A stretch of DNA of 64,000 nt from assembly GCA_963755715.1 (NCBI GenBank), contig CAVWLW010000076.1, positions 49,413-113,412 of the forward strand, written 5' to 3'. Position 1 is the stretch's first letter, and every line of letters starts with the position of its first letter. This DNA is from an uncultured delta proteobacterium. Lineage in GTDB: Bacteria > Desulfobacterota > Binatia > UBA9968. Of this stretch, positions 1 to 63,869 are shown in pieces. The translations under genes were made by a program, and so were the position numbers. The notes beneath the pieces were generated by a model. It had not been told where the DNA came from and did no database searches. It was given only the letters and a program-made list of their open reading frames with translations.

Positions 1-156
1 GACGTGCGTCAAAATTTCGCGGAGCACCTCTCGCGATTTCAGTTTCGCCCAAAACAAGATTCGCTCGATGGTGAGAGCGAGCGAGATTAAAGAACAAATC
101 AGGAGCGGTATCATGACGATCCCACCCTTGACGATGACGGCAACGACCTGCGCCAT
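1..156 (-). CDS. MotA/TolQ/ExbB proton channel protein, N-terminal part (runs off window; 1-nt frameshift near 125)
   Basis: Manual translation MAQVVAVIVK/GIVMIPLLICSLISLALTIERILFW matches the GGxvMxPLxxxSxxxxxxxxER start of the ExbB/TolQ family. Confidence 0.8.
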   Translation of the reverse strand, partial: MAQVVAVIVKGGIVMIPLLICSLISLALTIERILFWAKLKSREVLREILTHV

Positions 157-158
157 GA

Positions 159-359
159 CTAGTGCACCGATCCTTTCTTGACTTCTGCGTCGAGTCGCTC
201 GACGCTGTCCGCCACGCTCTGCAACGCCAGCCCCAGGGCGCGCAAATCATCGAGGGAGATATGCAGCACACAATTGCCGTAATGAAAGTGGACGGTATCT
301 CGACTGCAGTTGCACAGAGAGACCGACCATTTGCCTTCGCGCGATTTGATTCCATCCAT
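159..359 (-). CDS. Small Cys/His-rich hypothetical protein (66 aa)
   Basis: ATG at 359 with GGAGG RBS; MDGIKSREGKWSVSLCNCSRDTVHFHYGNCVLHI...; stop abuts the exbB start. Confidence 0.7.
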   Translation of the reverse strand: MDGIKSREGKWSVSLCNCSRDTVHFHYGNCVLHISLDDLRALGLALQSVADSVERLDAEVKKGSVH

Positions 360-372
360 TTTGACCTCCAAT

Positions 373-417
373 AAAAAAGCCCGAAGTCCCGCCGATTGTT
401 CCGGCGCGCATCGGGCT
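373..417 (-). terminator. Intrinsic terminator/attenuator in the 5' leader
   Basis: Minus-strand AGCCCGA (417-411) pairs with TCGGGCT (384-378), inner GCCG/CGGC stem, followed by a T-run before the RBS. Confidence 0.65.
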
Positions 418-443
418 CTGGATTCATGACCGCTGGCCGCTGA
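413..443 (-). promoter_or_regulatory. Conserved leader motif copy 1 (putative Com-like protein RNA target)
   Basis: TCAGCGGCCAGCGGTCATGAATCCAGAGCCC; 28/31 identical to 3912-3942. Confidence 0.75.
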
Positions 444-448
444 CTTAT

Positions 449-479
449 TTCGTATATTAAAATGAAAATTAGTTGTCAA
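449..479 (-). promoter_or_regulatory. Sigma-70 promoter TTGACA-N17-TATACG overlapped by a DtxR-type box
   Basis: -35 at 479-474, -10 at 456-451; same geometry as 8778-8806. Confidence 0.65.
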
Positions 480-494
480 CACTAATAAAAAAGA

Positions 495-508
495 TTAGTC
501 TATACGAA
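495..508. promoter_or_regulatory. Candidate DtxR/MntR operator TTAGTCTATACGAA
   Basis: 14-bp pseudo-palindrome resembling IdeR/DtxR-type TTAGGTTAGGCTAA and the 8776-8789 site. Confidence 0.55.
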
Positions 509-536: not shown

Positions 537-716
537 TCAGCTAGTCGGTTTCGACACGGTTGGTCGGTCGGTTGCGGCCAACAACGGAATGACCCACCGT
601 CTTTTACAGCGACGACACTTGAGCTCCACTCCATCTGGCACTAAACGGGCCAGGAGATTGCCGCATTGACAGCGTAACGGCTCAGCGGGCGATTTTTTGG
701 CGGCTTCTTTTTCCAT
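537..716 (-). CDS. Com-like zinc-ribbon protein 1 (59 aa)
   Basis: LRCQCGNLLARLVPDGVELKCRRCKR: Cys pair + LLA...EIKCxRC pattern of the Mu Com family; start codon uncertain. Confidence 0.75.
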   Translation of the reverse strand: MEKEAAKKSPAEPLRCQCGNLLARLVPDGVELKCRRCKRRWVIPLLAATDRPTVSKPTS

Positions 717-3766: not shown

Positions 3767-3875
3767 GACTGCTCCTTTCAAAGATTAAAGTTGAGGCTTG
3801 CTCGCTTCGTTGGATTGCACATCGGTGACCAGCACTACCTTGCTTCGTGCACCCATCTGTACAAAAGAAATTCAT
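3747..3875 (-). CDS. Putative 42-aa leader ORF MNFFCTDGCTKQGSAGHRC...
   Basis: AAGGAG RBS and ATG at 3875; overlaps the start of the downstream gene. Confidence 0.35.
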   Translation of the reverse strand: MNFFCTDGCTKQGSAGHRCAIQRSEQASTLIFERSSHVFSII

Positions 3876-3911
3876 AGCCCGACTCCTTCCTTAGTTATTT
3901 TGCGAAGCACT

Positions 3912-3942
3912 GGGCTCTGGATTCTCGACCTCTGGCCGCTGA
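3912..3942 (-). promoter_or_regulatory. Conserved leader motif copy 2
   Basis: TCAGCGGCCAGAGGTCGAGAATCCAGAGCCC; its AGCCC can pair with GGGCT adjacent to ATG 3875. Confidence 0.75.
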
Positions 3943-3989
3943 AGGATCCTGTTGTACGAAGCTTTTTACACGACTTACACTGTCTATCC

Positions 3990-4125
3990 TCACGGTTCCT
4001 TTGGTATCGACGCGGAAGAATCGACGCGACGTTTGCAGCGCCGGCACTTGATTTCTACGCCTTGCGCTGACTAACCGCGCCAAAAGACTGCCGCAACAAC
4101 AGCGGAGGGCGTCCTCATCGCGCAT
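3990..4125 (-). CDS. Com-like zinc-ribbon protein 2 (frameshift near 4065)
   Basis: MRDEDALRCCCGSLLARLVS then shifted frame QGVEIKCRRCKRRV...; paralog of 537-716. Confidence 0.7.
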
Positions 4126-4175
4126 AGCTAGAACGGCATCCTGCCGCGATGTTTGATCCGGGCTTAAACTGCGAA

Positions 4176-6216
4176 CTAAGACTCCACAGGTCCTTTCTTT
4201 CCTGCGCCGACCCACAGGAAAGTCGCAAAAAACGCGCATAGCATAAGCGCTTGAGCCGCTAAACTTTCCAAGGTCGGATAAATTCCCAGCAGCGGAATCT
4301 GCGGCGGGAAACCAAGGGGGTTGTCGAAACCCAGCCCGCGGCCTGTAACTCTTTAATACCGTTACCGGCGAAAATGAACGCAATGATATAAAGGAAGGTT
4401 CCGGTGACGCCGAAGAAATATTTCAACGGAACTTTGAGGCCGAGCTTCAAAATGGCAAAGGTCAGCACGACAAGAACCGCCAGTCCGGCGATGAATCCCC
4501 AAAGAATCAGATGATGGTCGTTTTCGTTCTGCAGCCATAGCGCTTGGTAAAACAACACGACTTCAAAAGCCTCACGATAGACGGCAAAAAATGAAATTCC
4601 CACCAGTCCGAGAATCTTCTTGCCGTCGACCACGTTCTGTACCTTGTCGTGAATGAAGCTCTGCCACTTCTTGGCCTCGGACTTCGTATGCAGCCAATAG
4701 CCGACGTAGAACAAAGCTACGGCGGCAAAAACCGAGATAAAGCCCTCCATGCTTTCGCGATGTTGTCCGCTGAAAGTCAAAAACGTTTGAGTGGCGACCC
4801 AGGTGAGGCCGCCGGCGACGAGGGCGAGGACCCAGCCGATGATGGATGTAGCGAACGGCATGCGGTGGCGCCCATGACTTTGAGCATCGCCAGGATCGCG
4901 GCTAGAACCAAAGTCGCTTCCAGTCCTTCGCGCACAATGATCAGCGCGGAATTGAGGAAAAAATAGATGCCCGAGTAGTCGTCGTTGCGCGCGATGATTT
5001 CGCTGGCCCGATCGAGACCCGCTTCGATTTCACTGCGCCGTTTGTCGATCTCTTCCGGCCCAACTCCCTGTTTGATGGCGTTACGGTACGCGGTGAATAA
5101 GCCCTCGAGGCTGCGGCCGAAGGAGGCGTCTTTGGCGAATAAGGCGGGCTCGGCCAGCTCGTAGCCGTCGATGTAGGCATCGACGGCCTTTTGATAGGCT
5201 TTTTCTTTTTCTCCGGCGGCATAGAGCGCTGCGCTTTCGCGCACCAAGTTCCGAGTCAGCACCAGCGGGTCCGCCGGCTTTTGTTCCAACAGACCGCGGC
5301 GCAGATAAGCGAGGACATCGTTGACCTGATCTTCCTGATCGAAATAACTCTTAAGTTGTTCCGATAGCTGTTCATCGGAGTCGGTTGCGAGATTCGCCAC
5401 GGCGGTCAGCTCCGCCGGCAATTTTTTCTGCTGTATCAGCGCCGCGCCGCGATCGGCTTGTTCGCGCGAGAAACGCAAGGACATGACATAGAACGCGACC
5501 TGCCAGCGCTGCTCCTCGCTGAGCGCCGCAAACGAAGCCATCGCCGTTCCCTCCACGCCGAAGCTCGCCGTGTTGAAAGCCTTAAACGGCGACAATCCCG
5601 CCATTCGCTCAGGATCGGTGAAATTCGCCGGCGCGGGCGTCTTGGGATTCATCGAACTTCGCCCCGGTCCATCGCCCTTGCCGCTCTCGCCGTGGCATTG
5701 GGCGCAATTCTCCACGTAGAGTTTTTGGCCTGAGTCCAAAGACGGCAACTGTTTAGGATACGGAACGATTTTATATGCGGTGATCAGTTTTTCTTTGGCG
5801 TTCTGGGCGAGCTCGGCGACGATCTGGGGCTCGGCTTTTTTGTCGATCTGTGCGGCCAGTGATTTAATAGTCGATTCGATTCCGGCTCTGTCCGCCTTGT
5901 CGGCTTGTTTGAGCTGATTGAAAAGTTCTTGGCTGCGCTTGGAGAACTCCTGCATCTCGGCGTATTCGTCGGCGCTCAGGATCTTGCCGTCCTTGACGGC
6001 GTTTTTGTAGTCGCTGCCGAGATAGTCGAGTAGCGAGACCAGCCGCTTGGCGTCATCCGGTTGGGCGAAAGCCAGAGGCGCGGTGCTCAAGAGCGCAGCG
6101 ATTGCCAGGAAACAAAAGAAGAGACGGCGGATACCGGGAATTCGGTTAAGTCGGTTGTCTGAGAAGCTACGAAAGCAACGGGTCGAGGTGGTTTTATTAT
6201 GAGATGGAGGTTCCAT
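4176..6216 (-). CDS. Cytochrome c / FTR1-family iron permease fusion (frameshifts near 4860 and 4315)
   Basis: CAQCH heme motif; REGLE and REAFE motifs; C-terminal LLGIYPTLE; exact start uncertain. Confidence 0.9.
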
Positions 6217-35461: not shown

Positions 35462-37318
35462 ATGAAACGAAAAATCTTTGGCTACGTGTTTGCGTTCATG
35501 GCGATGCTGCTGTGGGCGAGTTTGTCTGATCGGGTTTCTTTCGCGGCCGATGAAAGCAAGGAAGGGGCGCCAGCAGCGGAGGCGCCTAAAGCTGAAGCTC
35601 CGTCCGCTGCGCCTGCTGCACCGGCGGCGGCAGCGCCGGCGCCGAAATTACCGCCGTATTTCACAGCGACGAGTCCGGATCCGAAAACGCCCGCACCTTG
35701 GCCCGATCCGACGGGCTCTGCCTCTGGTGTGTGGGCAACTCCAGCCGGTGACGGGAAGGGTGATGTTCCTGATAAGCTGTCGATGCAAGATCTCTATGAT
35801 CGGATGGCGCACAACCTATATTCTATTAATTACGTTTGGGCTCTGGTCGCCGGTTTTCTAGTCATGTTCATGCAGGCTGGCTTCATGCTCGTTGAGACCG
35901 GGCTTTGCCGCGCGAAAAATGCGTCGCATACCGCAGCCATGAATCTCATGATTTATCCGCTAGGCTGTCTCGCGTTTTGGGTCTACGGGTTCGCCATCGG
36001 GTGGGGCAACTGGTGGAATGGTCCCGTCGCTCCAGGTTGGTACCCGTCTCTAGGTCCAGGCCTGTCACTGCTCAATGAGGGTTGGGGCTTGGGTGCGGCT
36101 GTCGATGCGGCGGGAAAGGCAACAGGTGCGTTTACTTATGGCCTAATCGGTTTGAAGGGTTGGTTTTTGACCGGTGCTGTAGGCGATACCGCAGTTTTGG
36201 TGTTGTTCTTTTTCATGATGGTTTTTATGGATACCACCGCAACGATTCCCACCGGTGCGATGGCCGAACGCTGGGCCTGGAAGAATTACTGCCTGTTCGG
36301 ATTGTGGATTGCGCTGCCTTATTGCCTCTACGGCAATTGGGTGTGGGGTGGGGGTTGGCTAGCCCAAGGCGGCGTAAATTGGGGACTTGGTCATGGAGCG
36401 GTCGATTTCGCCGGTTCTGGTGTTGTTCACGCAATGGGTGGCGTGATCGCGCTCGCGGGAGCCATGGTTCTCGGGCCGCGCATTGGCAAATTCAATGCAC
36501 AGGGTAGACCGAATGCCATGCCTGGTCACGACGTGCCGATGGTCGCGTTGGGAACGTTCATCTTAGCTTTCGGTTGGTTCGGTTTTAATCCGGGCTCGAC
36601 ACTCGCGGGCACCGATTTGCGAATCAGCTACGTCGTTGTGAACACGATGCTCGCCGGCATCGTTGGTGCGCTCGCTGCAATGGTGACACTCATGATGAAG
36701 GGGCTTAAACCGGATACCACGATGATGTGCAACGGCATGCTTGCTGGCTTGGTCGCGATCACGGCGCCATGTGCGTTCGTCGATCCGTGGGCGGCGGCTG
36801 TCATCGGTTTGGTGGCTGGCTGGCTCGTGGTGGTAAGCGTGTTCTTCTGGGAAGCTCGGGGCATCGACGATCCTGTCGGTGCGATCTCCGTTCACGGAGT
36901 CAACGGGTTGTGGGGCGTTATTTCAGTAGGCATATTCGCGACCGGCCAATATGGCGCCGGCTGGAACGGTGTCGTGCGCGATGGGATGGTGAAGCTGTAC
37001 GGTTCAGACGGTGTCCGCGGTCTGCTTTACGGCGATTTCTCACAGTTCATCATGCAAGTGATCGACGCAGGCACTGTGGCGGTCTTCGGTTTCGTGATGG
37101 CATTCGTATGGTTCAAAGTCAGTGATCTCATCACACCGATTCGCGTCAGCAAAGAAATTGAGATCGAAGGTCTTGATGGTCCGGAAATGGGTGTGCTTGG
37201 TTACCCAGATTTCCAGCTTCATCCATCGGCATCGGGAGGCAGTGCAGCTATCGACGTCGGCAGTGCAGCCGCGTCTGCACCTTTGGGTGTGCAAGTAAGA
37301 AAGGTTGTTACCGACTAG
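35462..37318 (+). CDS. amtB: Ammonium transporter with long N-terminal extension
   Basis: MQAGF, DFAGSGVVH, GWFGFNPGS, DDPVGAISVHG. Confidence 0.95.
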   Translation: MKRKIFGYVFAFMAMLLWASLSDRVSFAADESKEGAPAAEAPKAEAPSAAPAAPAAAAPAPKLPPYFTATSPDPKTPAPWPDPTGSASGVWATPAGDGKGDVPDKLSMQDLYDRMAHNLYSINYVWALVAGFLVMFMQAGFMLVETGLCRAKNASHTAAMNLMIYPLGCLAFWVYGFAIGWGNWWNGPVAPGWYPSLGPGLSLLNEGWGLGAAVDAAGKATGAFTYGLIGLKGWFLTGAVGDTAVLVLFFFMMVFMDTTATIPTGAMAERWAWKNYCLFGLWIALPYCLYGNWVWGGGWLAQGGVNWGLGHGAVDFAGSGVVHAMGGVIALAGAMVLGPRIGKFNAQGRPNAMPGHDVPMVALGTFILAFGWFGFNPGSTLAGTDLRISYVVVNTMLAGIVGALAAMVTLMMKGLKPDTTMMCNGMLAGLVAITAPCAFVDPWAAAVIGLVAGWLVVVSVFFWEARGIDDPVGAISVHGVNGLWGVISVGIFATGQYGAGWNGVVRDGMVKLYGSDGVRGLLYGDFSQFIMQVIDAGTVAVFGFVMAFVWFKVSDLITPIRVSKEIEIEGLDGPEMGVLGYPDFQLHPSASGGSAAIDVGSAAASAPLGVQVRKVVTD

Positions 37319-63527: not shown

Positions 63528-63604
63528 CGGGGCGTAGCGCAGCCTGGTAGCGCACCTGCCTTGGGCGCAGGGGGTCGGAAGTTCGAATCTTCTCGCCCCG
63601 ACCA
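63528..63604 (+). tRNA. tRNA-Pro(TGG)
   Basis: Cloverleaf, anticodon TGG, encoded CCA. Confidence 0.93.
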
Positions 63605-63607
63605 TCG

Positions 63608-63688
63608 AGTAGTACTGAGTTATGAGCGCTGAGTGCTGAGGGTTTCAGAGCGGATGGCATTTTTCTCCTCTCGGCACTCAGCACTCGT
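63608..63688. repeat. Heptamer repeats (GTGCTGA-like) with inverted set in tRNA spacer
   Basis: gtactgagttatgagcgctgagtgctgag ... ctcggcactcagcactc. Confidence 0.55.
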
Positions 63689-63699
63689 TATCTTTTTTG

Positions 63700-63776
63700 G
63701 CGCCAGTAGCTCAGTTGGATAGAGCAACGGCCTTCTAAGCCGTAGGTCAGGGGTTCGAATCCCTTCTGGCGCGCCA
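63700..63776 (+). tRNA. tRNA-Arg(TCT)
   Basis: Cloverleaf, anticodon TCT, CCA. Confidence 0.95.
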
Positions 63777-63791
63777 GAATAGTTTGTTTAC

Positions 63792-63869
63792 GGTGAGTGT
63801 AGCTCAACTGGTTAGAGCACTGGGTTGTGGTCCCAGGGGTTGAGGGTTCAAGTCCCTTCACTCACCCCA
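63792..63869 (+). tRNA. tRNA-His(GTG)
   Basis: G-1, anticodon GTG, CCA. Confidence 0.95.

Follow-up and report, generated by a model that had tools for sequence, protein, structure and literature searches.

What is the role of an RNA motif of about 30 nucleotides (nt) that opens the leader of a TonB operon and lies beside a gene for a small protein resembling Com of phage Mu? The question is raised by a locus at the start of a 64,000-nt stretch of the genome of an uncultured Binatia bacterium (contig CAVWLW010000076.1), termed the window here; coordinates refer to the window, and all leader features are read on its minus strand. The element, composed of the motif and an adjoining hairpin, is a conserved unit and not a product of chance. 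Its first copy (copy 1), in front of the exbB operon, is very probably a real cis-acting terminator leader, and the Com-like protein is its likely partner; on balance, protein binding would prevent rather than promote termination. The reading that combines these parts, a transcription attenuator dependent on the Com-like protein, is offered as a tentative one.

A probable terminator leader ahead of the exbB operon

A first-pass annotation of the locus had described a promoter with the hexamers TTGACA and TATACG at a spacing of 17 nt, a motif at the very 5′ end of the resulting transcript, pairing of this motif with a segment running into a U-run and, behind it, a GGAGG ribosome-binding site (RBS); each of these elements was found as described (Table 1). 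The RNA would begin at about 444, ~7 nt past the −10 hexamer, and a terminated 3′ end is expected at about 371–375. The hairpin is located between the promoter-like element, recognized from sequence alone, and the first start codon of an operon in the order small open reading frame (ORF)–ExbB–ExbD–TonB–receptor. The proposed attenuator layout (promoter, 5′-end motif, terminator, RBS) proved to recur in 13 of 13 unique leaders of the sigma70 class. TTGACA is invariant in their alignment, the spacer length is fixed and the −10 element reads TA-n-AC; the motif starts 6–10 nt past this element and at least six of the eight bases past the stem are T, both in all 13 leaders, whereas the start codon follows 19–29 nt past the stem in 12 of them, leaving no space for a second promoter. 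The palindrome CTAAT-N7-ATTAG is likewise conserved in the 13 leaders, within an AT-rich island, and is a candidate operator for a DNA-binding regulator, possibly a metal-responsive one. Public RNA contigs from three libraries match pieces of positions 481–1042 at 95–99% identity, and four runs leave 244–480 uncovered.

Folding of the 102-nt copy 1 leader yields −36.6 kcal/mol (z = −2.04; 7 of 200 shuffled sequences are equally stable), with GAGCCCGA (418–411) paired to UCGGGCUU (384–377) over 8 pairs at probabilities of 0.82–1.0. The hairpin closed by GCCC...GGGC reaches −22.9 kcal/mol and carries the tail UUUUUUAUUG, hence a GC-rich hairpin with a U-tract directly after it, as expected of an intrinsic terminator, and its 5′ arm consists of the final 7–9 bases of the motif. 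All 22 aligned instances, in which the block AGCGGCCAGnGrUCnnGAAyCCAGAGCCC is near-invariant between variable flanks, form a hairpin of −19 to −33 kcal/mol with a U-run behind it. Over all loci, 50 unique instances were obtained, 48 of them with a GCCC...GGGC-closed hairpin and 41 of these 48 with at least five T in the 8 nt past it. The nine-pair base helix is 97.1% paired across 57 sequences, compared with at most 71% in slid controls, and 13 alignment cells changed on both sides of the helix, a value reached by none of 500 shuffles; conservation of the 3′ arm, GGGCU(C/U)U, equals that of the 5′ arm. Inner stems, analysed per sequence as they are too variable for MAFFT alignment, are all different (57 of 57; mean identity 53% versus 83% in the motif columns), and z lies below −1.64 in 45 of 57. 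Since the inner stems vary yet stay folded, selection acts on the fold of the hairpin, whereas in the 5′ block it acts on the sequence.

A promoter, a single-stranded conserved 5′ region and an intrinsic terminator also make up the classic layout of a small regulatory RNA (sRNA), multi-copy examples of which are PrrF and Qrr. Promoter, ~70-nt RNA and terminator would then form a multi-copy sRNA gene, or the sRNA would derive from a leader or 3′ untranslated region, with the conserved 5′ segment acting as pairing seed, the Com-like protein as chaperone or partner, and read-through into exbB being incidental. Such a role would suit the occurrence of 1–4 motif copies per genome, some of them remote from the Com-like gene and served by separate sigma54-type promoters, yet the surroundings of the element make it improbable: a same-strand gene with a Shine-Dalgarno (SD) sequence follows shortly downstream in 51 of 59 instances (not de-duplicated; the other 8 include loci cut by contig ends) and in 5 of 7 further remote copies, the sigma70-class start codons lie at the short distance given above in an operon without other promoter, downstream genes are functionally coherent, and the motif can be located directly behind the Com-like gene without a promoter of its own. 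Both readings are compatible, as terminated leaders can also act in trans.

The specificity of the motif resides in its full length. The 9-mer CCAGAGCCC alone occurs at chance level (14 matches with at most one mismatch versus 12.8 expected), and a third exact copy of it at 35838 was dropped, being placed within a coding sequence and missing the longer motif. The 31-nt motif has two matches in the window (443–413 and 3942–3912), compared with none in 100 shuffles, and these are the only two copies in the 7.4-Mb genome, which likewise encodes only two Com-like genes, each just 5′ of one motif copy; this coincidence supports a real unit. A plain terminator with a motif beside it by chance was ruled out by this genome-wide uniqueness together with the conservation. 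Copy 2 looks decayed, with a split Com-like gene, a weak inner stem (−2.6 kcal/mol, z = −0.7) and a poor U-tract. Three frame-split genes were noted within 10 kb, namely Com-like gene 2 (3990–4127), a cytochrome c-FTR1 permease gene (about 4777–4861) and, past the edge of the window, a TonB-dependent receptor gene (L119, 760–2965); the splits are either assembly indel errors or real decay of the locus.

The small ORF behind copy 1 is conserved with 66–70 residues (…GRWSVSLCNCS..HFHYGN..LHI…). It belongs to no Pfam family, and an Atlas search returned hypothetical clusters only, with scores below 0.9. In one relative (L005, 416–1237) it forms the N-terminal part of a 274-residue fusion with ExbB, with MotA_ExbB at residues 140–257, and its product probably works with the ExbB-ExbD-TonB motor. 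Past the window edge, the operon comprises exbD, tonB, the gene of a TonB-dependent receptor and that of a PiuC-like hydroxylase.

Table 1 Features of the leader locus and of motif copy 2 in the window.
Feature	Coordinates	Strand	Description
exbB, 5′ part	1..156	−	after the small ORF
Small ORF	159..359	−	ATG at 359; 66 aa, MDGIKSREGKWSVSLCNCS...HFHYGN
Shine-Dalgarno GGAGG	365..369	−	from sequence
U-run UUUUUUAUU	370..378	−	7 T among the 8 nt after GGGC
Predicted terminator hairpin	377..419	−	5′ arm AGAGCCCGA overlaps the motif; 3′ arm UCGGGCU(U)
Conserved motif copy 1, TCAGCGGCCAGCGGTCATGAATCCAGAGCCC	413..443	−	31 nt; covariance-model match of 80.4 bits
Promoter-like element	451..479	−	TTGACA (479–474), 17-nt spacer, TATACG (456–451); from sequence
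Palindrome CTAAT-N7-ATTAG	482..498	−	just 5′ of the −35 hexamer; sequence and conserved alignment columns
Com-like zinc-ribbon gene 1	537..716	−	ORF, 59 aa, LRCQCGNLLARLVPDGVELKCRRCKRR; two cysteine knuckles
Motif copy 2 with degenerate hairpin	3865..3943	−	covariance-model match of 54.1 bits; 5′ of a DUF6662 gene
Com-like gene 2	3990..4127	−	two reading frames, break between ...LLARLV and GVEIKCRRCKRR

A Com-like zinc ribbon beside the motif

The link between the leader and a Com-like protein, drawn in the first-pass annotation, is borne out by adjacency, by near-perfect co-occurrence and by homology to Mu Com. By sequence comparison, the 59-aa protein and Mu Com are distantly homologous: profile A3 of the Com-like family aligns with the latter in hhalign over 33 columns that include both knuckles (probability 95.2%, E 2.7e-8), BLASTP reports 39% identity (E 1e-6), and the homology covers the four-cysteine zinc ribbon. 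Several relatives carry the JGI label ‘phage FluMu protein Com’; neither Pfam nor NCBIfam gave a Com match for the 59-aa protein, and sequence look-ups yielded neither a solved Com structure nor another useful match. The gene is located immediately upstream of the gene that would be regulated. The RNA sites resemble each other as well. The Mu junction CUGAAUGCCUGCGAGCAUC lies directly 5′ of the inhibitory hairpin (TIS) that holds the mom GUG, and GAAU-CC-N-GAGC is common to the Mu site and the core GAAUCCAGAGCCC here, with alike topology. According to the part of the Mu Com study at hand (PMC6483171), Com recognizes CC(N)2-3GAG, shown in a hairpin beside the inhibitory structure, and systematic evolution of ligands by exponential enrichment (SELEX) gave a bipartite motif; the motif described here likewise has two CC-N-GAG-like half-sites, which in copy 1 take the form CCAG(A/C)G (GGCCAGCGGUC and AUCCAGAGCCC).

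A protein search found a Com-like gene in 24 of 61 related genomes, in 22 of them at E ≤ 2e-11. The motif follows within about 230 nt of the Com-like gene in 19 of 21 related loci, the exceptions being L016 and L017, and L010 ends at a contig edge. A covariance model built from the 22 aligned instances matches 34 of 79 named loci that encode a Com-like protein, and all of the 39 model matches of at least 40 bits in these 79 loci are on the strand of the Com-like gene. Locus L004 stems from an unpublished genome, G005; it contributes a single entry to the comparison, and none of the conclusions depends on it by itself. L057 is titled Comamonas sp. and may be mislabelled, as its Com-like gene and motif are near-identical to those of Myxococcus. 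Of the 61 genomes, 21 have the motif together with a strong Com-like match, and 36 are devoid of both. The 4 discordant ones comprise a strong Com-like match with a degenerate motif (G027), two weak Com-like matches without motif and a weak motif without Com-like match (G008). Presence and absence of motif and Com-like gene are both seen inside one genus.

The ligand of the motif might instead be a different protein or, as in riboswitches, a metal ion or metabolite, with the Com-like gene a mere co-member of a metal regulon. The family's failure in the Pfam Com model (detailed below), the discordant genomes G027 and G008 and four distant ones speak for such a ligand, which we nevertheless regard as a poor candidate explanation. 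The motif has no conserved fold of its own, which argues against an aptamer: the 5′ motif alone folds at just −4.8 kcal/mol, and its 4-bp mini-hairpin GGCC/GGUC is broken in GAUC variants and, overall, in about half of the instances. No structured aptamer or exclusive antiterminator helix of the kind that defines riboswitches and RNA-only attenuators was found, and Rfam at E up to 1 gave two sub-threshold chance matches and no fitting family for four loci. At gathering thresholds, Rfam identified tRNAs only in the window, three genes in tandem on the plus strand at 63528–63866. Adjacency and co-occurrence are very tight (21 with both and 36 with neither, of 61), the motif resembles Mu's Com site, and protein and motif change together in the Myxococcaceae, where a second knuckle reading CHRT is accompanied by a motif with CCCGAGGCC...CCAGCGCCC.

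Proposed direction of control and variable output platforms

From these parts, the following course of events would result. The sigma70-type promoter (479–451) would give an RNA opening with the ~30-nt, mostly unstructured motif and its two half-sites, the 3′ end of which (AGAGCCCGA) doubles as 5′ arm of the terminator (hairpin 419–377 and U-run). By default, the RNA would stop at a length of ~70 nt, ahead of the RBS of the small ORF-exbB-exbD-tonB-receptor operon. The neighbouring Com-like zinc ribbon would bind the motif, as Mu Com does at its site 5′ of the mom inhibitory hairpin, and keep the AGAGCCC arm single-stranded, allowing polymerase to read through into the TonB operon. We infer transcription start, termination, protein binding and the direction of the effect from the sequence. 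Com-like gene 1 is the terminal gene of the upstream FTR1/ApbE iron operon, so read-through would make the TonB energiser follow the expression of this uptake operon. The presence of several copies per locus before successive genes fits an antitermination regulon. Two or three motif-hairpin units of this kind were observed at L031, L033, L040, L041, L074 and L085; at L040, one unit is located 5′ of the Com-like gene itself, making autoregulation possible.

Occupation of the motif core had been predicted to abolish the terminator, and this was borne out in part. Blocking CCAGAGCCC in silico raises the minimum free energy (MFE) of the leader to −21.9 kcal/mol (−34.3 kcal/mol when unblocked); the stem base beside the U-run is lost, whereas an inner hairpin stays. 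As this residual hairpin is found near the U-run, loss of termination is plausible but not certain.

Binding could also have the opposite sign. The Com-like protein would then contact the 5′ half-site and the folded hairpin base and stabilize the terminator as an attenuating repressor, for which TRAP and PyrR provide models; if its Cys4 site needs metal to fold, uptake genes would be shut off when metal is replete. The second half-site is indeed located within the stem base, whose 3′ arm is conserved like the 5′ arm, the residual inner hairpin weakens the antitermination case, and repression by a metal-loaded protein suits the control logic of iron uptake. We nonetheless consider repression unlikely. 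The hairpins are strong already and mostly have good U-runs, such that they should terminate unaided, and a gene behind the array of Com-like gene, motif and terminator would stay silent permanently unless it had its own promoter. The Mu precedent, as given in the accessible text of PMC6483171, points both ways: Com prefers its motif presented in a hairpin, yet it is an activator that melts the adjoining hairpin.

Mu Com acts on translation (same source, same part), and Mu-style translational control, in which the hairpin and a CCAG:UUGG pairing hide the RBS, the protein frees it and termination is secondary, had been set aside in the first-pass annotation. This judgement is supported for copy 1. 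Its MFE structure does pair CCAG with the UUGG of UUGGAGG, and the Myxococcaceae, G136 and L103/L109 have structures by the SD sequence and no U-run. The CCAG:UUGG extension, however, is found in a minority of sigma70-class leaders and is gone where the sequence reads ACGGAGG or GCGGAGG; the T-rich stretch after the stem is kept in all 13 of them, and in loci with the motif right behind the Com-like gene, stem and start codon are 24–109 nt apart. Because most orthologues lack the pairing but all retain the U-run, translational control is the less likely mode in the copy 1 class, and we hold it to be very improbable there.

The element occurs in three contexts. In context (a), the motif is located directly behind the Com-like gene, about 45 nt past its stop codon and without its own promoter, with genes for DUF6662, cupredoxin, a porin-like protein, DUF4198, a MauG-like protein or a multicopper oxidase downstream. 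Context (b), which includes copy 1, has an AT-rich spacer with a promoter, followed by the small ORF and ExbB. Context (c) comprises copies separated from the Com-like gene by 4–13 kb or placed on a different contig, with a ferritin gene downstream and a sigma54-type element, TGGCACG-N4-TGCT, about 20 nt 5′ of the motif. At L111–L114 (G014, G004, G020 and G003), a conserved TTCAACAATGACAAT block about 60 nt further upstream of the sigma54-type promoter is a candidate enhancer-binding site. A diverged motif, GCGGCCCGAGGCC..UUGAGCCCAGCGCCC, is present in 7 of 7 inspected loci of Myxococcus, Corallococcus and Pyxidicoccus. Target genes over all classes form a metal-uptake-type set, including ExbB/TonB, ferritin and the Myxococcus TonB-dependent receptor. 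Judged by these arrangements, motif and Com-like gene are the constant part, joined to varying output platforms, of which that of the copy 1 class has the features of a canonical terminator. A single further example, L123 (G136), has a motif whose first 8 nt (CGAGCGGC) are fully complementary to GCCGCUCG just 5′ of the SD sequence, and may thus use long-range pairing as its platform instead of a terminator.

Several observations weigh against antitermination by the Com-like protein, at copy 1 or as a general mode. The inner hairpin that persists after the CCAGAGCCC block (about −12 kcal/mol) lies 4 nt from the U-run, residual inner hairpins average −10.8 to −13.4 kcal/mol across classes, and termination at them could persist. 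Folding of the copy 1 leader revealed no RNA-only antiterminator structure, and the protein could equally recognize the folded stem base and stabilize it. A hairpin behind the Com-like gene could be that gene's own terminator. U-tracts are weak in the sigma54/ferritin class (3–4 T of 8), the Myxococcaceae have GC-rich hairpins that abut the SD sequence ahead of a TonB-dependent receptor and no U-run, which speaks against a terminator there, and at L103 and L109 the motif is present with the hairpin missing. A consensus promoter and terminator scan of the window listed neither the copy 1 promoter nor its terminator, because the −10 hexamer is without the final T and the stem is bulged with a long interior. 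With respect to the protein, the first zinc knuckle in the family is CxC and not CxxC, and none of 26 family members match PF10122 (Zn_ribbon_Com) at E up to 1, a model that Mu Com itself matches at 36.8 bits. As kin among the 61 genomes are not independent, the co-occurrence makes the support look stronger than it is. In an even sample of 150 other genomes of the phylum, the covariance model found no match and the Com-like protein 4; 2 of these 4 genomes have a recognizable diverged motif 3′ of the Com-like gene.

Relation to known systems and a possible role in metal homeostasis

Protein-dependent antitermination at sites overlapping terminators is known from BglG, SacY and LicT acting on the ribonucleic antiterminator (RAT), from HutP and from ANTAR regulators such as EutV. 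The present element is like these in that the terminator of a leader shares its 5′ arm with a conserved RNA site, several sites precede successive genes of a regulon, and the regulator gene is part of the locus. Unlike them, the putative regulator is a Com-type zinc ribbon of ~60 residues without CAT/PRD, HutP or ANTAR domain, and its site is neither RAT-like nor a dual-hexaloop hairpin, with no alternative antiterminator helix evident.

Compared with Com and mom of phage Mu, the likeness comprises a small homologous Cys4 zinc ribbon encoded immediately 5′ of the regulated gene, an RNA site directly 5′ of a regulatory hairpin with the shared GAAU-CC-N-GAGC, and the CC...GAG flavour of recognition, the latter as far as the portion of PMC6483171 consulted describes it. 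In contrast to the phage system, the loci described here are chromosomal metal-uptake loci of Binatia-type and Myxococcota genomes. Their hairpin is a predicted intrinsic terminator 19–109 nt from the start codon, whereas that of Mu hides the start codon, and their site has two largely unpaired half-sites instead of a 6-nt loop. There are several target sites per genome, some of them 4–13 kb from the Com-like gene, and the protein differs from Mu Com by its CxC first knuckle and its failure in PF10122.

As the nearest precedent, Com-like genes also precede bacteriocin, lysis and levansucrase genes in Pseudomonas, where their role ‘remains to be explored’ (PMC6240691, available part). They share with the present genes a non-Mu context and the position of a short gene ahead of its presumed target; unlike them, they match PF10122, and no RNA motif, terminator or link to metal uptake is described in that part of the source. 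A search of full-text literature (subscription journals and supplements lay outside its scope) found no report of a Com homologue that targets a terminator or takes part in metal uptake. The data suggest a real, conserved and previously undescribed regulatory unit that combines a Com-type RNA-binding regulator with protein-controlled attenuation.

A further and quite unlikely extension is that the Cys4 ribbon of the Com-like protein is a metal sensor, folding and binding RNA only when loaded with Fe or Zn. If so, a single protein would accomplish metal-sensing attenuation, setting read-through, or translation where the terminator has been replaced, in a regulon for iron and copper uptake and storage (TonB-ExbBD, FTR1-associated genes, DUF6662, cupredoxins, multicopper oxidase and ferritin). 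This regulon would span Binatia-type bacteria and Myxococcota, and a phage-derived RNA-binding module would have been domesticated into a Fur-independent layer of metal homeostasis.

Should the proposed mechanism itself be true, a Com-type zinc ribbon of ~60 residues would join the short list of regulators of protein-dependent attenuation. It would be the first cellular role for Com homologues, which are unexplored outside Mu according to the excerpted text of PMC6240691. The 59-aa protein and its 30-nt site could serve as a small orthogonal control part, and Myxococcus xanthus, which is genetically tractable, has a diverged version before a TonB-dependent receptor (L053). One sensor module would serve differing expression platforms, namely a terminator in the present leader and hairpins close to the SD sequence in Myxococcus, and the finding would define a ~70-nt RNA element absent from Rfam together with a metal-uptake regulon in the little-studied Binatia.

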